From IMG/VR virus record IMGVR_UViG_2531839581_000012: 7,450 nt of DNA, one strand, 5' to 3'. Under the pieces are notes generated by a model. It saw nothing but the letters and a program-made list of their open reading frames with translations. It was not told the origin of the DNA and made no database searches. Positions 2 through 7,272 of the stretch are shown here, one piece after another. The first letter of the stretch is position 1, and each line of letters starts with the position of its first letter. This DNA comes from a virus. Taxonomy: Duplodnaviria; Heunggongvirae; Uroviricota; Caudoviricetes. Both the position numbers and the translations under genes were made by a program.

Positions 2-340
2 AAAGCGTATTTCGAGCTGGGAATGACGTTCCCGGAACTGTATGACGACAGCCATCCGGAAGCCCTGGCTCGCAATACCCAGAAAATTTTCCGCTGGGTA
101 GAGAAAGACACCCCTGATGCAGTTGAAAAAATTCAGGCGTTGTTACCAGCGATCGAAAAGGCAATGCCACCTTTGCTGGTGGCCAGAATGCGCAGCCACA
201 GTTCAGCTTATTTTCGGGAGCTGGTGGAGACGCGGGAGCGACTGGTGAGAGACGCTGATGATTTTGTCGCAGTGGCAATCGCCGGTTTCAATCAGATGAA
301 CCGTGGTGGCCCGGCAGGAAATGCTGTGGCAGTACATTGA
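2..340 (+). CDS. 3' end of an upstream phage early-region protein (5'-truncated by the window edge); function not recognised
   Basis: The reading frame is open from the first full codon at nt 2 (KAYFELGMTFPELYDD...) through the TGA at 338-340; the ATG at 23 in the ORF track is internal to this frame. Composition is GC-rich like the rest of the phage backbone. It lies directly upstream of the replication initiator, where lambdoid genomes carry early regulatory genes. No motif was recognised. Confidence 0.45.
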   Translation, partial: KAYFELGMTFPELYDDSHPEALARNTQKIFRWVEKDTPDAVEKIQALLPAIEKAMPPLLVARMRSHSSAYFRELVETRERLVRDADDFVAVAIAGFNQMNRGGPAGNAVAVH

Positions 341-411
341 CTGACAATAGCCATATCGAATCGCTTCCGGCAACTCGTGAGTAAAAAGATTCGGTATCAG
401 AAGAGGTGAGT

Positions 412-1482
412 ATGGCTAACGCTTGGCTCAGATTATGGCATGACATGCCAAATGACCCTAAGTGGCGAACAATTGCCAGGGTGTCAGGGCAGCCAATTGC
501 AACAGTGATGGCAGTGTATATCCACCTCCTGGTGAGCGCGTCACGAAATGTCACGCGAGGTCACATTGATGTCACGACAGAAGATTTGGCAAGTGCGCTC
601 GACGTGACAGAAGAGGTAATTGATTCAATTTTGCAGACGATGCAGGGGCGGGTACTTGATGGTGATTTAATCACTGGATGGGAAAAACGCCAGGTGCTTA
701 AAGAGGACAACGGCAATATTTCGCAAACCGCAAAATCTCCTGCAGAGCGCAAGAGGGCGCAGCGAGAGAGGGAAAGAAAGCGGGAACAAAATGGCAATTG
801 TCACGGCGCGTCACGAAATGTCACGCACATGTCACGACGAGTCACGACAGATAAAGATACAGATAAAGATACAGATCAAGAAGATCAAAACACTATGGTC
901 CATGGCGTAAAAAACGCCACGAACCAGGCAGGGGATGTTCAGACCGTCAATCTTGGTCAGCCAGCAGGCACGACACCGGAAGCCGATTCAGCGTATGCGC
1001 TGAAAGCCGATTCGGGCGCTGTGCAGCAGGTGATGACCGCAAGGGCGGAGCAATCACACCAACTGCAGCAGCCTGAAGCCGATTCCGCCATTCAGCGGGA
1101 AGCCGATCGGGTAGTCCCGGAAAACACCGGGCAGTCTGTGGGACGAGTGGATTATCCGGATGTGTTCGAACAGGTCTGGCGGGAGTACCCGTTGCGTGCT
1201 GGGGCAAACCCGAAGAAATCCGCTTTCAGTGCCTGGAAGGCCAGATTACGCGAGGGGGTGCCACCAGAGGCCATGCTGGATGGCGTGAGGCGTTACGCAA
1301 GATACTTGGCGGCTACCGGGAAAACGGGAACGGAATTTGTTCAGCGAGCGACGACGTTTTTTGGACCGGACCGGAATTTTGAGAACCCCTGGTTGCTCCC
1401 GGTAAGCGGCACGAACAACCAGCGTTGTGTGAATCATATTTCTGAACCGGATAACGAAATTCCGCCGGGCTTCAGGGGGTAA
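412..1482 (+). CDS. Phage replication initiator / replisome-organiser protein with iterons embedded in its own gene
   Basis: The ORF track gives 406..1482 starting at GTG; an ATG at 412 lies 5 nt after AAGAGG (401-406) and is the preferred start. The N-terminal ~120 aa (WLRLWHDMPNDPKW...AVYIHLLVSAS) resembles the winged-helix N-domain of phage replisome-organiser proteins. A basic linker follows (ERKRAQRERERKRE). The C-terminal ~110 aa (DYPDVFEQVWREYPLRAG...FVQRATTFFGPD) resembles the conserved C-terminal domain of enterobacterial prophage initiators (DnaT-like or DUF1376-type, family assignment uncertain). Two iteron clusters sit inside the gene, as with lambda O and ori-lambda. Confidence 0.7.
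   Translation: MANAWLRLWHDMPNDPKWRTIARVSGQPIATVMAVYIHLLVSASRNVTRGHIDVTTEDLASALDVTEEVIDSILQTMQGRVLDGDLITGWEKRQVLKEDNGNISQTAKSPAERKRAQRERERKREQNGNCHGASRNVTHMSRRVTTDKDTDKDTDQEDQNTMVHGVKNATNQAGDVQTVNLGQPAGTTPEADSAYALKADSGAVQQVMTARAEQSHQLQQPEADSAIQREADRVVPENTGQSVGRVDYPDVFEQVWREYPLRAGANPKKSAFSAWKARLREGVPPEAMLDGVRRYARYLAATGKTGTEFVQRATTFFGPDRNFENPWLLPVSGTNNQRCVNHISEPDNEIPPGFRG
536..608 (+). repeat. Iteron cluster 1 of the putative replication origin
   Basis: TCACG/TCACA motifs start at 541, 551, 561 and 572, spaced 10-11 bp (about one helical turn), with an inverted copy CGTGAC at 602-607. The 21-mer GCGCGTCACGAAATGTCACGC at 536-556 recurs exactly at 806-826. Confidence 0.65.
801..846 (+). repeat. 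Iteron cluster 2 of the putative replication origin
   Basis: Five TCACG copies start at 801, 811, 821, 832 and 842 with 10-11 bp periodicity. The cluster contains the exact 21-mer shared with cluster 1 (806-826). Confidence 0.7.
851..890 (+). repeat. AT-rich tandem repeat next to the iterons; candidate DNA-unwinding element
   Basis: GATAAAGATACA occurs twice in tandem (851-862, 863-874), followed by GATCAAGAAGATCAAAAC with two GATC sites (874-877, 883-886). It lies immediately 3' of iteron cluster 2 and encodes the acidic low-complexity stretch DKDTDKDTDQEDQ. Confidence 0.5.
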
Positions 1483-1522: not shown

Positions 1523-1954
1523 GTGGCAAAAGTTTTTACACAAGAAGAGCGGGAAAAAATTAAAGGGCAGGTTCTTGAACTCGTACGCCAGAGTGGGCGC
1601 GAGACGTTACGACAACTGGAAGCTAAAACTGGGGCAACAAGATATCTGATGAGCGTTCTGGCCAGAGAGCTGGTTGCCAGTGGCGATGTATACAATTCTG
1701 GCTACGGGTTATTCCCGTCTGAACAGGCTCGTAAAGACTGGCAAAATGCCCGCAAAAAATTATCGAGGGCAAAGCTGAAGAAACCGGTTGTGGTTGATCC
1801 GGACCTTATCTGGTCATTACCAGACGGAGAAATACGCCGCTACGACAGGCGTCTGAACATAATCTGTCGCGAGTGCCGGAAGAGCGAAGTTATGCAGCGT
1901 GTGCTGGCGTTTTATCAGAATGGTTTTCGAGAGAGGCTTGGAGATCAGGGATGA
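1523..1954 (+). CDS. Hypothetical small basic phage protein (143 aa)
   Basis: GTG start at 1523 is preceded by AGGAGGG (1513-1519). Composition is GC-rich and backbone-like. The protein is basic and carries a CRECRK motif. No family was recognised. Its stop (TGA 1952-1954) overlaps an ATG at 1951. Confidence 0.55.
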   Translation: MAKVFTQEEREKIKGQVLELVRQSGRETLRQLEAKTGATRYLMSVLARELVASGDVYNSGYGLFPSEQARKDWQNARKKLSRAKLKKPVVVDPDLIWSLPDGEIRRYDRRLNIICRECRKSEVMQRVLAFYQNGFRERLGDQG

Positions 1955-2172
1955 ATAGAACGATGAAGGATGGAAGCTACATATTCTCGGTACTAAGATT
2001 TATTTTTCTGACACAAAATGACCATTTGGCGTTACATAATCCCAAAAAAACGTATCAAAAATCTCAAAATGCGTTACGATTAGAGAGTATTTTGATTCTG
2101 CGTGCTCATTTTTTGATTGCTGTGGCTTTTTGTTGTGGGAGTGTTGAATGGATTATTTATCAGAAGTGTTAA
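1951..2172 (+). CDS. Candidate small hydrophobic ORF (74 aa) bridging the phage backbone and the ATPase gene; may be spurious
   Basis: ATG at 1951 overlaps the upstream stop (ATGA) and is preceded by GGAGA (1940-1944). The product MNRTMKDGSYIFSVLRFIFL...ILILRAHFLIAVAFCCGSVEWIIYQKC has a hydrophobic C-terminal half. The ORF lies wholly in AT-rich sequence, where hydrophobic ORFs arise by chance, and overlaps the ATPase start by 25 nt. Confidence 0.2.
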   Translation: MNRTMKDGSYIFSVLRFIFLTQNDHLALHNPKKTYQKSQNALRLESILILRAHFLIAVAFCCGSVEWIIYQKC

Positions 2173-3302
2173 AAATCATTGAAGGTGCAACAAAGGCAAA
2201 TGCTTCGATGGCTAGTAATTATGCTGGGTTGCTGGCAGATAAGCTCGAACAAAAAGGGGAGGTCAAGCAAGCCAGAATGATAAGAGAAAGGTTGCTTAGA
2301 GCTCCCCAGGCGTTGGCAGGAGCTCAAAGGGCTGGAGGTGGGATATCTCTGGGCTCATTACCGGTAGATATTGATAGTCGACTCAACACTGTTGATGTCA
2401 GTTATCCTAAATTAGACAGTTCAGAGATTTTTCTGCCTGCAGCAATCAGTACCCGTGTTGAAGAGTTTATCACTAATGTTCAACGTTATGATGAGTTTGT
2501 TAAAGCTGATGCAGCATTGCCGAGTCGTATGCTCGTGTATGGAAAGCCAGGAACAGGTAAGACTATGTTATCTAAGTACATCGCTACCCGCTTAGATTTT
2601 CCACTTCTTACAGTGCGTTGCGATACTTTGATTAGTAGTTTATTGGGACAAACCAGCAAAAATCTTAGACAGGTTTTCGATTATGTAATGCAGAGGCCAT
2701 CAGTGCTTTTTTTAGACGAATTTGATGCTTTAGCTGGAGCAAGAGGTAATGAGAGAGATATAGGTGAGCTTCAGCGAGTTGTCATTTCACTATTGCAGAA
2801 TATGGATGCGGCATCAGAGGATACGGTAATTATTGCCTCAACTAACCATGAGCAACTTCTGGATCCTGCAATCTGGAGGCGATTTAGCTTCAGAATTCCA
2901 ATGCCTCTGCCTGACATACATCAGAGAGAGTTAATTTGGAAAAATCGTTTAAAGAATATGATATGTAGCGATCTAGATTTAAGTGATTTATCAAGAAAAT
3001 CGGAGGGATTATCCGGAGCAATAATTGAACAGGTGAGCTTGGATGCACGTAGGGATGCAGTTATTGAAGGTGCAAGTGTGATAAATCACCATAAATTGTA
3101 TAGGCGTTTGTATCTTGCGCAATCGCTTATGGAAGGTGTAAATTTAAGCACTTACGAAGATGAAATTCGTTGGTTACGTTCTAAAGATAAAAAATTATTT
3201 TCTATCAGAGTTCTTGCTAATTTGTACAAACTTACATCAAGAGTAATTTCAAACATTCTGAAGGAGTCAGGAGCATATGAGCAGAAGGGGTACACAGTTT
3301 AG
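2148..3302 (+). CDS. Classic-clade AAA+ ATPase (384 aa) with a C-terminal helix-turn-helix-like segment; IetA-like by architecture
   Basis: ATG at 2148 follows GGGAG (2137-2141) at 6-nt spacing and an in-frame TGA at 2145-2147. Walker A is GKPGTGKT (G132-T139, nt 2541-2564). Walker B is VLFLDEFD (D190/E191, nt 2715-2720). Sensor-1 and second region of homology read IIASTNHEQLLDPAIWRRFSF (N233, R244/R245), closely matching the canonical AAA pattern TN...LDPA...RRF. The C-terminal FSIRVLANLYKLTSRVISNILKE looks like an HTH. The stop (TAG 3300-3302) overlaps the downstream gene by 26 nt. Confidence 0.85.
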   Translation: MDYLSEVLKIIEGATKANASMASNYAGLLADKLEQKGEVKQARMIRERLLRAPQALAGAQRAGGGISLGSLPVDIDSRLNTVDVSYPKLDSSEIFLPAAISTRVEEFITNVQRYDEFVKADAALPSRMLVYGKPGTGKTMLSKYIATRLDFPLLTVRCDTLISSLLGQTSKNLRQVFDYVMQRPSVLFLDEFDALAGARGNERDIGELQRVVISLLQNMDAASEDTVIIASTNHEQLLDPAIWRRFSFRIPMPLPDIHQRELIWKNRLKNMICSDLDLSDLSRKSEGLSGAIIEQVSLDARRDAVIEGASVINHHKLYRRLYLAQSLMEGVNLSTYEDEIRWLRSKDKKLFSIRVLANLYKLTSRVISNILKESGAYEQKGYTV

Positions 3303-5541
3303 TAACGCAAAAGTTACAAACCCAATGTTAAGAATCCCTTTTTCCAGTAGTGACTTGGGTGCAATAGTAAACGCTGGCGGTGGGGCAAAGGTATTGGTTG
3401 ATGTAACAGCCGAATATAGACAAGGGCTAGTAAGAAATTTAACAACCAGTAAACATTATTTAGAATCCAAACTTTCAGAGTACCCTGGAAGCTTGGGTAC
3501 TTTGGTTTTCAAATTAAAAGACCAGGGAATAGCCAAAACGCATAGGCCGAACAAAATTGCTCAAGAGGCTGGATTGCAAAATGCCGGTCATGCCAAAATA
3601 GATGAAATGTTGGTTGCTGCTCATGCCGGCTGTTTTGACGTATTAGAGTCAGTCATTTTACATCGGAATATTAAAGCGATTTTGGCTAATCTAAGCGCGA
3701 TTGAGCGCATTGAACCTTGGGATGAGAATAGGAAGGTTCCAGGAGGCACTGATGGTTTGTTTGAATCATCAAACATCCTTGTACGACTATTTGAGTACAC
3801 AGGTGAAGATGCAACTTACAACAACTATGAAAACGTTATTTCTATATTAGAACAACACGGAGTTAAATATGATGAGATTAGACCAAAATGTGGTCTTCCC
3901 TTATTAAGGATAATGGATTTATCCCCAAATGATAGATATATATTAGACATTCTCATTGATTACCCGGGTATAAGAACGTTAATTCCAGAACCAAAATATT
4001 CAGCATTCCCGGTTAGTGTAAGTGATTCTGTTGGCATTGAAACAAATAGCTTTCCCGTACCATCAGAAGAATTACCCATTGTTGCTGTATTTGACACTGG
4101 GGTAAGCCCCATCGCGGCAACAATTACTCCTTGGGTAGTGAGTAGGGAAACATACGTAATTCCTCCTGATACGAGTTATGAACATGGGACTATGGTGTCT
4201 TCATTGATATCAGGCGCTCATTTTTTAAATGACAATCATCCATGGATTCCTGATACAAAATCTAAAATCCATGATGTTTGTGCTTTAGATGGAAATGGAT
4301 CTTATATATCAGATTTAATTCTGAGGCTAGCAGATGCTGTAAATAAAAGACCAGATATAAAAGTCTGGAATTTGTCTTTGGGAGGCGGACCATGTAATGA
4401 GCAGATGTTTAGTGATTTTGCGATGGAGTTAGATCGGCTCAGCGATAAATTTGGTATTTTGTTTGTAGTTGCTGCAGGTAATTATGTAGATGAACCTATA
4501 CGTACATGGCCAAATCCTGATCCGCTTGGAGGTGCTGATTTAATTTCCTCTCCTGGAGAGTCAGTCCGAGCACTAACAGTTGGTTCAGTTTCTCATATGG
4601 AAGCTAATGATGCTTTAAGTGAAATTGGAACACCGACACCATATACTCGTCGTGGCCCTGGGCCTGTATTTACTCCAAAGCCAGATATAATCCATGCTGG
4701 CGGTGGGGTTCATAGACCTTGGAATGTAGGAGCAAGCAGTTTAAAGGTCGTAGGGCCAGATAATAGGCTTTGCTCTAATTTTGGTACTAGTTTTGCTGCT
4801 CCAATTGTGGCAAGTTTAGCTGCGCATACATGGCAGAGAATAGCCACTAATTCAGACTTTAATGTTTCACCATCATTGATTAAAGCATTATTAATTCATT
4901 CCGCTCAATTATCTTCTCCTGATTACTCGCCAAGTGAAAGACGCTATTTGGGAGCGGGAATTCCTAATGAGGTTATTGAGACCTTATATGATAGTGATGA
5001 TAGGTTTACTCTGATTTTCCAAACATTCTTGGTTCCTGGGGTGAGGTGGAGAAAGGAAAACTATCCCATACCATCGGCACTTATTCAAAATGGAAAATTT
5101 AAAGGTGAGATTGTAATTACTGCTGCATATGCACCACCACTGAACTCTAATGCCGGCAGTGAATATGTTCGCGCGAACGTAGAGCTAAGTTTTGGCTTAA
5201 TTGAGAATAATACTATAAAAGGAAAAGTACCTATGGAAGGAGAAAACGGTCAATCTGGATATGAGAGAGCTCAAATTGAGCATGGTGGAAAGTGGTCACC
5301 AGTAAAAATTCATCGCAAGGCATTTAATAAAGGAATTACTTCGGGTAACTGGGCTCTTCAAGCTAAAACAACGTTGAGAGCGAATGAACCGGCCTTAATG
5401 GAGCCTTTACCTGTAACTATTGTAGTAACTTTAAAATCATTAGATGGAAACACACAAGTTTATGCTGATGGCGTAAGAGCTTTAAATGCTAATAACTGGG
5501 CTCACTATCCATTGCCTGCTCGTGTGCCAGTTTCCGTATAA
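3277..5541 (+). CDS. S8/subtilase-family serine protease (754 aa), probably cytoplasmic, with large N- and C-terminal extensions; IetS-like by architecture
   Basis: ATG at 3277 is preceded by AAGGAG (3261-3266) and AGGAG (3269-3273). The catalytic triad is in canonical subtilase order with signature contexts: Asp in VAVFDTGVS (D273, nt 4093-4095), His in YEHGTMVS (H303, nt 4183-4185), Ser in GTSFAAP (S505, nt 4789-4791). The oxyanion-hole Asn lies in VVAAGN (N402). The N-terminus MSRRGTQFSNAKV has no hydrophobic signal peptide. About 265 aa precede the catalytic core and about 180 aa follow it. Confidence 0.85.
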   Translation: MSRRGTQFSNAKVTNPMLRIPFSSSDLGAIVNAGGGAKVLVDVTAEYRQGLVRNLTTSKHYLESKLSEYPGSLGTLVFKLKDQGIAKTHRPNKIAQEAGLQNAGHAKIDEMLVAAHAGCFDVLESVILHRNIKAILANLSAIERIEPWDENRKVPGGTDGLFESSNILVRLFEYTGEDATYNNYENVISILEQHGVKYDEIRPKCGLPLLRIMDLSPNDRYILDILIDYPGIRTLIPEPKYSAFPVSVSDSVGIETNSFPVPSEELPIVAVFDTGVSPIAATITPWVVSRETYVIPPDTSYEHGTMVSSLISGAHFLNDNHPWIPDTKSKIHDVCALDGNGSYISDLILRLADAVNKRPDIKVWNLSLGGGPCNEQMFSDFAMELDRLSDKFGILFVVAAGNYVDEPIRTWPNPDPLGGADLISSPGESVRALTVGSVSHMEANDALSEIGTPTPYTRRGPGPVFTPKPDIIHAGGGVHRPWNVGASSLKVVGPDNRLCSNFGTSFAAPIVASLAAHTWQRIATNSDFNVSPSLIKALLIHSAQLSSPDYSPSERRYLGAGIPNEVIETLYDSDDRFTLIFQTFLVPGVRWRKENYPIPSALIQNGKFKGEIVITAAYAPPLNSNAGSEYVRANVELSFGLIENNTIKGKVPMEGENGQSGYERAQIEHGGKWSPVKIHRKAFNKGITSGNWALQAKTTLRANEPALMEPLPVTIVVTLKSLDGNTQVYADGVRALNANNWAHYPLPARVPVSV

Positions 5542-5554
5542 CAACTATATAAAT

Positions 5555-5584
5555 CAAACCCGCTGTAGCGGGTTTGATTTATTT
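5555..5584 (+). terminator. Rho-independent terminator closing the ATPase-protease operon
   Basis: A perfect 10-bp inverted repeat CAAACCCGCT / AGCGGGTTTG (5555-5564 and 5567-5576) with a short loop is followed by the T-rich tract ATTTATTTG. It starts 14 nt after the protease stop codon (TAA 5539-5541). Confidence 0.7.
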
Positions 5585-5870
5585 GTGGGTGTGTTTTATA
5601 AAAATACCGCCCATACACAACAAAATACAAAAAGTATTACAGATAAAAAAGGAGCGTAATGTGCAGATTTGTTGTTTTCCATATTTACTCACCTTAATAT
5701 GATTAATCCCGATAAGATTGTTATTTCAGCGGTTTTCAAATGAAATATTATGCTAATTTGGCAGATTTGCATAACATTAAAATTTAATTTATCTAACCGC
5801 TTTTAATAATAAGCGTTGTATTTTTATCCCAGCAATCTGTTGTTTGGTTTTTATTCCATTAAGGTGGGGC

Positions 5871-5898
5871 TTTACACTGGAGCCAGTTTATTTATACT
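5871..5898 (+). promoter_or_regulatory. Candidate sigma70-type promoter for the downstream nin-like gene chain
   Basis: TTTACA (5871-5876), a 16-nt spacer, then TATACT (5893-5898). It sits at the 3' end of a ~300-bp AT-rich non-coding spacer, about 50 nt upstream of the ATG at 5950. This is a consensus-like match only, with no experimental support. Confidence 0.3.
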
Positions 5899-5949
5899 TC
5901 ATACGTCAGCCTGAACAACTGGCACCTGCTGCGCCAGCAGAGAAAACAG

Positions 5950-6228
5950 ATGGCGCACGATACCAAATTTTACAATTCGGATAACTCTGCCGCCCCTGCC
6001 AGCAGGCACGGGCGGCGTTCTCATGCATTCAAATCTGACTGGTATCAGCACGACCCCTGCACCGAAGAACAGGCTGAATGGCTCATTCAGTGTTACCGCG
6101 GGCGCGGATGCGAGGTTAAAAAAGCCCTTAGCCTCGACTACCGTCACTGGATAATCTCCGTCAGGCTCCCTTACTCAGAACGGCCAGCGCGTCCGTCCCG
6201 CACATTCCAGCAACGGATCTGGAGGTAA
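5950..6228 (+). CDS. Hypothetical phage nin-region protein (92 aa)
   Basis: ATG at 5950 is the only start in its open frame, and the ribosome-binding site is weak. The stop (TAA 6226-6228) is followed directly by the next gene's GTG at 6230. It is first in a chain of tightly packed + strand genes with GC-rich phage-backbone composition. No family was recognised. Confidence 0.4.
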   Translation: MAHDTKFYNSDNSAAPASRHGRRSHAFKSDWYQHDPCTEEQAEWLIQCYRGRGCEVKKALSLDYRHWIISVRLPYSERPARPSRTFQQRIWR

Positions 6229-6229
6229 T

Positions 6230-6649
6230 GTGCGGGTATTACTTCGATCTGTTCTGGTACCGGAACTCGGTCTGGTTATCGTTAAGCCAGGCCGTGAATC
6301 AATGTCAGCATTCCATAACGGCAGAATACTGGTGGAGCCGGAACCAAAAAGCATGCGTAATCTGCCGTCCGGGGTCGTTCCTGCCGCTCGCCAGCCGCTG
6401 GTGGAAGACAAAACATTGCTGCCGTTTTTCAGCAACGAACGGGTGATTCGTGCTGCTGGTGGCGCTGGCGCATTGTCTGACTGGTTACTGCGCCATGTTA
6501 AATCCTGCCAGTGGCCCAGGGATTACACACAGGAAACCGTCATCACGTTAGGTCGGCGCATGGTGTTGTGCTGGCACTGGACAACCAGTTGCGTGACCAG
6601 CCTCGAATCACTTGAGCAACTTGCTCACCAAAACTGTCAGCATGGATGA
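6230..6649 (+). CDS. Hypothetical phage nin-region protein (139 aa)
   Basis: GTG at 6230 is preceded by GGAGG (6221-6225), though the spacing is short. Its stop overlaps the downstream start in an ATGA arrangement (6646-6649), which suggests translational coupling and supports a real gene. No family was recognised. Confidence 0.45.
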   Translation: MRVLLRSVLVPELGLVIVKPGRESMSAFHNGRILVEPEPKSMRNLPSGVVPAARQPLVEDKTLLPFFSNERVIRAAGGAGALSDWLLRHVKSCQWPRDYTQETVITLGRRMVLCWHWTTSCVTSLESLEQLAHQNCQHG

Positions 6650-7272
6650 TTGACGTCATCCGTCACGCAATCAGCGGTACGCAGGAGAGGGAGTTATCGC
6701 TGGCCGAATTATCCTGGTGGGCGGTCTGCAATCAGGTGGCTGATGCGCTTCCGGAGTCTGTATCGTGTCGTTCACTGGGATTACCGGTGGAAAAAATCCG
6801 CTCCGTATACCGTGAGAGTGACATCGTACCGGGAGAACAGACTGCCACCAGCATACTGAAGCAGCGCACAAAAAATATTGCGCTGCCACTTCACGCCCAC
6901 CAGCAACAGCCCCCACTCCAGGAAAAGACGTTAGTAAGCATCGCCGTTGATCCGGAGTCTCCGGCTCAGTATCTCCAGCGCCAGAAACCACAACGGGAAG
7001 AGATGCCTGTATACACGCGCTGGGTAAAAACGCAGAAATGCATGACGTGCGGTAATCAGGCAGATGATCCGCATCACATCATTGGTCATGGCCTGGGAGG
7101 TATGGGAACAAAGGCTGATGATTTGTTTGTTATTCCGCTGTGCCGTAAATGTCATAACGAACTGCACGCCGGGGTAAAAGATTTTGAAGAAAAATACGGC
7201 AGCCAGCTGTTGTTGCTGATTCGTTTTTTAATGCACGCGAGAAATTCGGGTGTCCTGAAGTGGAAAGCATGA
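6646..7272 (+). CDS. Phage nin-region protein (208 aa) with a C-terminal Cys/His cluster; putative zinc-binding or HNH-like domain
   Basis: ATG at 6646 overlaps the upstream stop (ATGA). Its stop (TGA 7270-7272) abuts the ATG at 7273 of the rusA-like gene. The C-terminus reads CMTCGNQADDPHHIIGHGLGG...CRKCHNELH, a C-x2-C ... HH ... C-x2-C-H arrangement. It resembles conserved prophage proteins found next to rusA or Q; a DUF968-type assignment is possible but uncertain. Confidence 0.6.
   Translation: MIDVIRHAISGTQERELSLAELSWWAVCNQVADALPESVSCRSLGLPVEKIRSVYRESDIVPGEQTATSILKQRTKNIALPLHAHQQQPPLQEKTLVSIAVDPESPAQYLQRQKPQREEMPVYTRWVKTQKCMTCGNQADDPHHIIGHGLGGMGTKADDLFVIPLCRKCHNELHAGVKDFEEKYGSQLLLLIRFLMHARNSGVLKWKA

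Follow-up and report, generated by a model that had tools for sequence, protein, structure and literature searches.

The 7450-base window analysed here, IMG/VR record IMGVR_UViG_2531839581_000012, is part of a Rac/lambdoid-type prophage of Escherichia coli. It carries ietA and ietS, the two genes of an IetAS anti-phage system, in which an AAA+ ATPase is paired with an S8 serine protease. We find that the last ~50 residues of IetA very probably form a tri-helical helix-turn-helix (HTH) domain, as judged by structure prediction and homology, and that ietA genes of this kind are preceded by four to six direct repeats with the core YGNWWCR and a strict 21-bp phasing. The repeats are a candidate operator, through which IetA may regulate its own operon.

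In the published work, which gives the mechanism of phage defence as unknown, IetA is the antitoxin and IetS a toxic protease (PMC13069673, 2026; PMC8562856); the domain content given for IetA is that of an AAA ATPase only (PMC13069673). That the two genes in the window are members of this system follows from equivalog cut-offs, PADLOC models, gene order and overlap, the last two being the same as in IetAS. IetA scores 526.6 bits with NCBIfam NF042959 (IteA_antiphage; cut-off 510), the match covering residues 1–367 of the 367-position profile, and has an E value of 8.9e-143 with the PADLOC IetA model; RefSeq E. coli genomes label the open reading frame (ORF) ‘iteA’. IetS scores 1038.5 bits with NF042956 (‘IteS’; cut-off 900) and 1e-299 with PADLOC IetS, with the peptidase domain PF00082 at residues 268–544. 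The ATPase domain of IetA (PF00004, E 2.6e-30) has intact motifs, namely Walker A GKPGTGKT at 132–139, Walker B D190–E191, N233 and the arginine fingers R244–R245, and these residues are invariant both in 99 homologues and in a second set of 67. The pairing of an AAA+ ATPase with a protease, which a sequence-only reading of this DNA had pointed out, is thus borne out by the ATPase profile and the S8 protease encoded by the next gene.

A predicted HTH domain beyond the AAA+ lid

The same reading had drawn attention to bases 3198–3263, encoding residues 351–372 of IetA (FSIRVLANLYKLTSRVISNILK), as having the spacing of hydrophobic and small residues typical of a DNA-binding HTH (the 23-residue string quoted there runs one residue further, to E373 at 3264–3266, a trivial discrepancy). 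This spacing is real and goes beyond chance, as conservation, register and predicted fold all indicate. In an alignment of 99 homologues, 57–86% identical, R354, Y360 and R365 are invariant, and conservation reaches at least 90% at F351, L356, S363 and E373 and at E339, W342 and L343 of the preceding helix. As we read the alignment, A357, G/K361 and I/V367 of the segment occupy positions 5, 9 and 15 of the 20-residue register that is classic for an HTH. AlphaFold2, given the 99-sequence alignment, returned a model with a mean predicted local distance difference test score (pLDDT) of 76, in which helices 336–346, 353–360 and 364–372 lie past the lid with pLDDT 86–89. The same three helices were obtained when residues 330–380 were modelled alone from 51 sequences, and in both models they form a three-helix bundle with a tight turn at 361–363. 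Helix 364–372 is the predicted recognition helix of a domain, residues 336–373, that these models append to a complete lid.

The sequence-only reading had allowed that the helix pair might merely be part of the AAA+ alpha-helical lid, an alternative that we now consider scarcely conceivable. The pair does come directly after the lid, and it is helical. However, the four lid helices are already present at residues 257–329, and the profile of AAA_lid_3 (PF17862) matches residues 275–315, leaving 351–372 outside it. A Foldseek search with the full model returned the ATPase modules of PAN, FtsH, Rpt and p97 D2; those of PAN, FtsH and p97 D2, each a complete AAA module, can be aligned with no part of the tail, and solved AAA modules end where the lid helices end. 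PAN (3h4m_A, 261 residues) is covered entirely, with a TM score of 0.85 on the target, while the N-terminal 70 residues of IetA and its tail are unmatched. Furthermore, seven plasmid-borne pairs of an ATPase and an S8 peptidase, of the type found on pTiC58, have ATPases of 327–355 residues that are colinear with IetA and end at about residue 330 in the numbering of the window protein, at the end of lid helix 4. Modelled in isolation, the tail folds and resembles HTH domains. Because the lid is complete by residue 329, PAN is covered without the tail and the short homologues end at ~330, we regard the tail as an add-on module; structure prediction and comparison together exclude its assignment to the lid.

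The likeness to HTH domains extends to solved structures and to family profiles. Almost all structural neighbours of the tail model are HTH domains that bind double-stranded DNA; they include region 4 of sigma factors (SigF, 6.5; SigG1, 6.3; FliA, 6.2; SigA, 6.1), Lrp/AsnC and LuxR/NarL regulators, WhiA (6.1, 27% identity), Tn3 resolvase (6.0) and a small terminase. The mitoribosomal proteins mS109 (7.1), mS45 and mL58 are also among the neighbours. The tails of 51 close homologues matched MRP-L20 in 34 cases (E ≤ 5, best 3e-5), and HTH_36, HTH_28 and HTH_23 in 13 cases each. A wider sample consisted of 67 representatives of 50%-identity clusters, 29–60% identical to the query, of which the tails only were scanned because P-loop families swamp a full-length scan. 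Almost all of the families matched (E ≤ 0.01) were HTH families: HTH_23 (12 members, best E 1.7e-6), HTH_28 (best 7.7e-7), HTH_3 (best 1.5e-6), HTH_38, Sigma70_r4, MarR_2 and others. Many of these tails resemble textbook HTH motifs, for example GMSMRDIEKATGVPRSTISYRLSK, and the net charge of the IetA tail is +3 to +4, as against ~0 for the whole protein. The HTH reading of the segment is therefore supported both by the predicted three-helix fold and by the Pfam HTH families that homologous tails match. The sole listed representative without an HTH (P0211) has no S8 peptidase gene among its called downstream genes.

When PDB sequences were searched with a profile of the tail, hmmsearch found only mitoribosomal mS45/mS26 (9e-5) and YmL20, and no classical regulators. 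Membership of MRP-L20 (PF12824, mitoribosomal mL58) was considered and rejected: the window tail has no match to it, and we attribute the likeness to a shared HTH-like subdomain.

By sequence comparison, IetA is divided into a ‘long’ class, which has the HTH tail and is conserved across phyla, and a ‘short’ class of the pTiC58 type, which lacks it. The short class comprises the seven plasmid loci mentioned above (L077 and L079–L084), which have neither an HTH nor an upstream array, and in each of them ietA adjoins an S8 peptidase gene. The PADLOC IetA models of 330 and 262 positions match the query only to about residues 311 and 258. The existence of the HTH-less class, together with these shorter models, suggests that the tail is not obligatory for the system. 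As to the distribution of the short class, 204 of the 614 plasmid records matched at E ≤ 1e-20 are from Klebsiella. At the short-class locus of pTiKerr108, the gene immediately ahead is a DUF6088 gene, which might act as a regulator in trans.

Phased repeats upstream of ietA

The region upstream of ietA was compared among 76 loci encoding IetA relatives, one genome per species, of which 68 were left after dereplication. Autocorrelation of 4-mers over positions –150 to 0 of the 68 loci rose to 34.5 per mille at an offset of 21 nt and to 33.1 per mille at 42 nt, as against ~5 elsewhere, and gave no peak in two far-upstream and two coding control regions. The 21/42-nt signal is also shown by pRi1724, a plasmid copy of the long class with an HTH. 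With G-N-W-W-C-R as the strict core and a step of exactly 21 nt, three or more cores in a row occur in 35 of the 68 loci and two or more in 46. No locus had three or more strict cores at periods of 18–20, 22–24, 10, 11, 31 or 32 nt, and none were found in control regions or in 200 shuffles. When both strands of 561 kb of locus sequence were searched, all 61 strict phased chains fell within –260 to +10 of the ietA start.

The logo of the 21-nt unit, aawwnYGnaACRa, has its information limited to the core, with A/T-rich flanks. There are five sites in 32 loci and four in 21, and the last site usually lies 8–35 nt ahead of the start codon. Arrays occur in Proteobacteria, Actinobacteria (L066, L067) and Enterococcus (L070, L076). 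Generic repeat and promoter tools applied to window positions 1900–2200 reported no promoter and, as the sole repeat, an 8-nt TTTTGATT pair; the array thus escaped them, and is visible only through comparison of loci.

The array goes with the HTH. Among the 68 long-class loci, 59 have relaxed phased runs with three sites or more, as against none of the seven in the short class (Fisher p = 5.8e-6, a value that is not corrected for the relatedness of the loci and so overstates their independence). Runs of at least four are present in 48 of the 68 long-class loci, as compared with none of 263 control regions. The sequence-only reading had suggested autoregulation as one role for a DNA-binding ATPase paired with a protease, and a conserved, 21-bp-phased array ahead of ietA, found only with the HTH, gives that suggestion specific support. 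For nucleic-acid sensing, the other role suggested there, the results speak neither in favour nor against.

The core also changes when the predicted recognition helix changes. In all four lineages with another residue in place of R365, the core lacks its G: Malikia (L012) has H365 and the cores CAAACA and CGAACA, spirochaete L069 (G365) and L090 (A365) have TTTCA at a 20-nt period, and L091 (S365) has TTGCR, likewise at 20 nt. Lineages with T364Q (L041, L044, L047, L049, L051, L052 and L072) and, independently, L060 have the cores GGAGCA or GGATCA, while L061 and L062, sisters of L060 with V364, retain GAAACA. Distant HTH-bearing relatives still have repeats upstream, with other cores or layouts. 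L087 has TTGAC three times at 21 nt and L089 has AACGTnAT at 21 nt; L086 has three copies of TGTCCAA spaced by 11 and 31 nt (–63 to –15), and L088 has a palindrome, GTACAAGCTTGTAC (–75 to –55), immediately upstream of a TTGACA/TATAAT promoter. Differences of this kind are what co-evolution of recognition helix and operator would yield.

Two further loci deserve description. At L071, AACGATAATCGTT (–33 to –17) stands in place of the 21-bp array. A contig from a metagenome-assembled genome of Citrobacter freundii (L001, QFQQ01000127.1) carries the same module as the window, with an IetA that is 91% identical; the first three cores of its array are identical to those of the window, the fourth, GATTCA, fits the core perfectly, and immediately ahead of this repeat lies GATAAT, a more distinct –10-like hexamer.

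Proposed control of ietAS and its alternatives

From these computed results (the fold prediction, the conservation, the existence, phasing and locus-specificity of the array, and its co-occurrence and co-variation with the HTH) we infer that oligomeric IetA binds the array through its HTH and autoregulates ietAS. Taken as a whole, with binding, repression and geometry all included, we would put this proposal at somewhat better than even. IetA would act as an oligomer, presumably an AAA+ hexamer, placing one HTH on each repeat; bound IetA would occlude the promoter or leader and repress transcription of ietAS, as type II antitoxins do. As 21 bp corresponds to two turns of B-DNA, all sites lie on the same face of the helix. 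The 21-bp step (~71 Å) would also be similar to the protomer-to-protomer arc at a radius of ~70 Å around an AAA+ ring. Given this similarity and the A/T-rich spacers, it is plausible that the DNA wraps along or around the IetA oligomer.

A more ambitious version, for which we see only an outside chance, is that an IetA hexamer forms on the DNA of its own promoter, which wraps around it and engages one HTH at each 21-bp repeat, so that the DNA is a structural cofactor of the resting antitoxin; displacement or titration by a phage would then both de-repress ietAS and release or activate IetS. If so, candidate triggers would be replication through the locus, DNA-mimic proteins, nucleoid degradation and the replication-linked triggers to which escape mutants point, and IetA would be a DNA-scaffolded, classical-clade AAA+ ring that acts as an infection sensor.

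A number of observations weigh against autoregulation through the array. In the window, only three sites fit the strict core, the fourth and fifth being degenerate, and across loci the commonest number of sites is five, not six. Compared with what is expected of the operator of a type II operon, the array is conserved, locus-specific and located at about –120 to –10, but the promoter scan is empty: a consensus scan found no sigma-70 promoter within 2000–2148, so that overlap between sites and promoter is assumed. The co-variation involves only a handful of lineages, and L089 retains R365 and yet has a core without a sense-strand G. As to the domain, the window’s own tail, scanned as three fragments at E ≤ 10, has no Pfam match, HTH families included, and its HTH membership by sequence is consequently indirect, by way of homology. 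Because mitoribosomal proteins are among the relatives that score best with the tail, there is room for binding of RNA or protein instead, and domains like sigma region 4 mediate protein contacts too.

The tail might accordingly be a protein–protein module that docks IetS, an adjacent IetA protomer or a trigger protein of the phage, much as sigma region 4 engages anti-sigma factors, with some other factor binding the repeats. We consider this unlikely. Short-class IetA proteins have no tail, yet seven out of seven are encoded beside the peptidase gene, and antitoxin activity is reported for the pTiC58 AAA-ATPase/S8 pair (Yamamoto 2009, as cited). A Pfam scan of the two-gene module detected no second DNA-binding domain, and the repeats accompany the HTH across phyla and change with R365 or T364.

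Binding of the tail to the repeats in the ietAS mRNA leader, with control of translation or of mRNA stability, appears to us highly improbable, even though several features would suit it. The closest relatives of the tail in sequence are the mitoribosomal domains described above (MRP-L20 and mS45/mS26), the repeats are strand-asymmetric (GAAAC 74 versus GTTTC 19), and they extend to ~10 nt from the start codon, so that the last ones could be transcribed. Against this, a strict period of two B-DNA turns is a hallmark of same-face sites on double-stranded DNA, at ~105 nt the array is above typical leader length, and –10-like hexamers (TAAACT) lie between the sites at many loci. The leader has no Rfam match and its predicted folding is unremarkable (z = –0.2), so that it appears to be without stable or conserved RNA structure, and the structural neighbours of the tail are, as described, overwhelmingly binders of double-stranded DNA.

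It is also rather improbable, in our estimate, that the HTH senses invading phage DNA or replication intermediates and so triggers the protease, the repeats being incidental or secondary. The domain is basic, and in Bacillus cereus, where a phage protein triggers ietAS and the system works by aborting infection, escape mutants map to replication-related functions (bioRxiv 10.1101/2022.08.27.505566). This explanation, however, does not account for a phased, co-varying and locus-specific array found only upstream of ietA, and the seven short-class proteins without an HTH, together with the shorter PADLOC models, suggest that the system can do without the tail.

Autoregulation by IetA would resemble that of type II toxin–antitoxin systems such as HigA, MqsA and HipB, in having an antitoxin with an HTH and candidate operators ahead of an antitoxin-first operon. 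It would differ from them in that IetA is a ~43-kDa AAA+ ATPase, presumably hexameric, that the operator consists of four to six direct repeats rather than a palindrome, and that the toxin is a protease. DnaA, with its domain IV and DnaA boxes, and NtrC-type proteins, with a C-terminal Fis-type HTH, would share with IetA the order of an oligomerising AAA+ module followed by a small C-terminal HTH, and the use of multiple sites. Unlike DnaA and the sigma-54 activators, however, IetA has an ATPase of the classical FtsH/PAN/p97 clade, its closest solved relatives being p97, PAN and FtsH; identity as a sigma-54 activator was considered and rejected (PF00158, E 0.03, 14.4 bits, below the cut-off of 20.2). 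We know of no classical-clade AAA protein with an HTH tail of this kind, although no survey was made. Plasmid iterons, which are 17–22-bp repeats bound by Rep monomers, are likewise direct repeats in the same orientation with helical phasing and A/T-rich spacers, but the IetA array belongs to the promoter or leader of a defence operon, be it chromosomal, prophage-borne or plasmid-borne, rather than to an origin, and its proposed binder is not a winged-helix Rep. Unlike the domains of sigma-70 region 4, LuxR/NarL, resolvase, homeodomain-like and MRP-L20/mS45 proteins, the IetA tail of the window passes no Pfam threshold and is attached to an AAA+ lid instead of a sigma, receiver or recombinase domain.

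The HTH tail, the long/short division and the upstream 21-bp array are not described in the accessible IetAS literature, of which the 2009 founding paper is not part. No paper in the searchable literature links ietAS with a helix-turn-helix, the founding paper (PMC2704731) being outside that search, and a 2026 paper comparing the domain organisation of IetA makes no mention of such a domain. IetAS has been validated as a system that both defends against phage and stabilises plasmids, and how it works is described as unknown (PMC13069673, 2026); a predicted DNA-binding domain with a defined, conserved and mutable candidate target would be a first concrete molecular handle on its control. Natural specificity variants exist, such as R365H with its G-to-C core, and the HTH-less class offers a natural comparison. 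Some autoregulation is to be expected of an antitoxin; for a classical AAA+ ATPase to read five sites in strict phase would be unusual, and would bear on how ring ATPases are coupled to DNA. For annotation, the two IetA classes are separable, and the cis element may be included in, or omitted from, ‘minimal’ ietAS constructs.

The locus and further features of IetA

The features of the window are collected in Table 1. The ietAS pair has 40% G+C, as compared with 52–53% in the prophage flanks, and a match over at least 80% of the window is present in seven of 5426 complete E. coli genomes; this low G+C content and rarity are typical of a recently acquired defence insert. With its flanking spacers (window 1955–5950), the insert has 34–40% G+C; the DUF977 gene lies on one side of it and the following prophage genes on the other.

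Table 1. Positions of genes, domains and candidate control elements in the window.
Feature	Position	Strand	Remarks or basis
YdaT-like gene	23–340		
358-residue ORF	406–1482		RefSeq counterpart annotated DUF1627
DUF977 gene	1523–1954		
Five direct repeats, exact 21-bp spacing; candidate HTH operator	2031–2120	+	family-wide autocorrelation, phased chains
Repeat 1, GTTACA	2031–2036	+	matches strict core
Repeat 2, GTATCA	2052–2057	+	matches strict core
Repeat 3, GTTACG	2073–2078	+	matches strict core
Repeat 4, GATTCT	2094–2099	+	degenerate
Repeat 5, GATTGC	2115–2120	+	degenerate
Putative Shine–Dalgarno sequence of ietA, GGGAG	2137–2141	+	6 nt ahead of ATG 2148; sequence reading
ietA, 384-residue AAA+ ATPase; antitoxin/ATPase of IetAS	2148–3302	+	NCBIfam, PADLOC, RefSeq
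AAA+ lid, four helices: 257–271, 278–284, 290–306, 314–329	2916–3134	+	AlphaFold2 secondary structure, PF17862
Predicted C-terminal tri-helical HTH domain	3153–3266	+	residues 336–373
Predicted helix 2	3204–3227	+	residues 353–360
Predicted turn, K361-L362-T363	3228–3236	+	3 residues
Predicted recognition helix 3	3237–3263	+	residues 364–372; invariant R365 at 3240–3242
AAGGAG, likely Shine–Dalgarno sequence of ietS	3261–3266	+	K372-E373 codons at end of recognition helix; sequence
Variable end of IetA tail, predicted disordered	3267–3299	+	residues 374–384; overlaps ietS start
ietS, 754-residue S8 serine protease; toxin/effector	3277–5541	+	NCBIfam, PADLOC, Pfam
Terminator-like hairpin, 15-bp stem	5549–5582	.	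directly 3' of ietS
DUF968/HNH gene	6646–7272		

The two genes overlap by 26 nt; RefSeq shares the ietS start at ATG 3277, and comparable overlaps are found at other loci. The start codon of ietS thus sits within the coding region of the IetA tail. At other loci (L001–L011, near the ietA stop), a conserved D/H/N-G that follows the HTH corresponds to the embedded ATG (nAT GGn), with GGAGG ahead of it. K372-E373 and the D/H/N-G are therefore conserved at least partly because the Shine–Dalgarno sequence and start codon of ietS are embedded there, and a share of the apparent protein conservation near the end of IetA is a signal of translational coupling. Beyond this, residues 376–384 have pLDDT below 50, and their length and sequence differ between homologues. 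At the other end of the module, the hairpin has a perfect stem, ATAAATCAAACCCGC...GCGGGTTTGATTTAT, that begins 8 nt past the ietS stop and is called terminator-like on the minus strand; it probably closes the ietAS module in both directions.

Three other features of IetA and its relatives were noted. At the position of pore loop 1, residues 163–170 (window 2634–2657) read S-S-L-L-G-Q-T-S, invariant or nearly so, unlike the aromatic-hydrophobic-Gly motif (e.g. K-W/Y/F-V-G) of the unfoldases FtsH, PAN and p97; model confidence falls here. This deviation, as read from sequence, may bear on whether IetA threads substrates. The N-terminal region, residues 1–62 (window 2148–2333), has three predicted helices (4–17, 19–35 and 39–62), followed by a linker at 55–69 of low confidence. 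It is conserved at A22, Y25, L28–A30, L33 and G37, matches no family, and has a predicted overall shape reminiscent of the MIT-like domains found in Vps4 and katanin. Finally, the representative search returned giant proteins of 1000–2100 residues with four to six tandem IetA-like AAA modules (P0121, P0122, P0124, P0128 and others), among them P0121, of 2124 residues with six matched stretches; such chains could be pseudo-hexamers whose modules are joined covalently.

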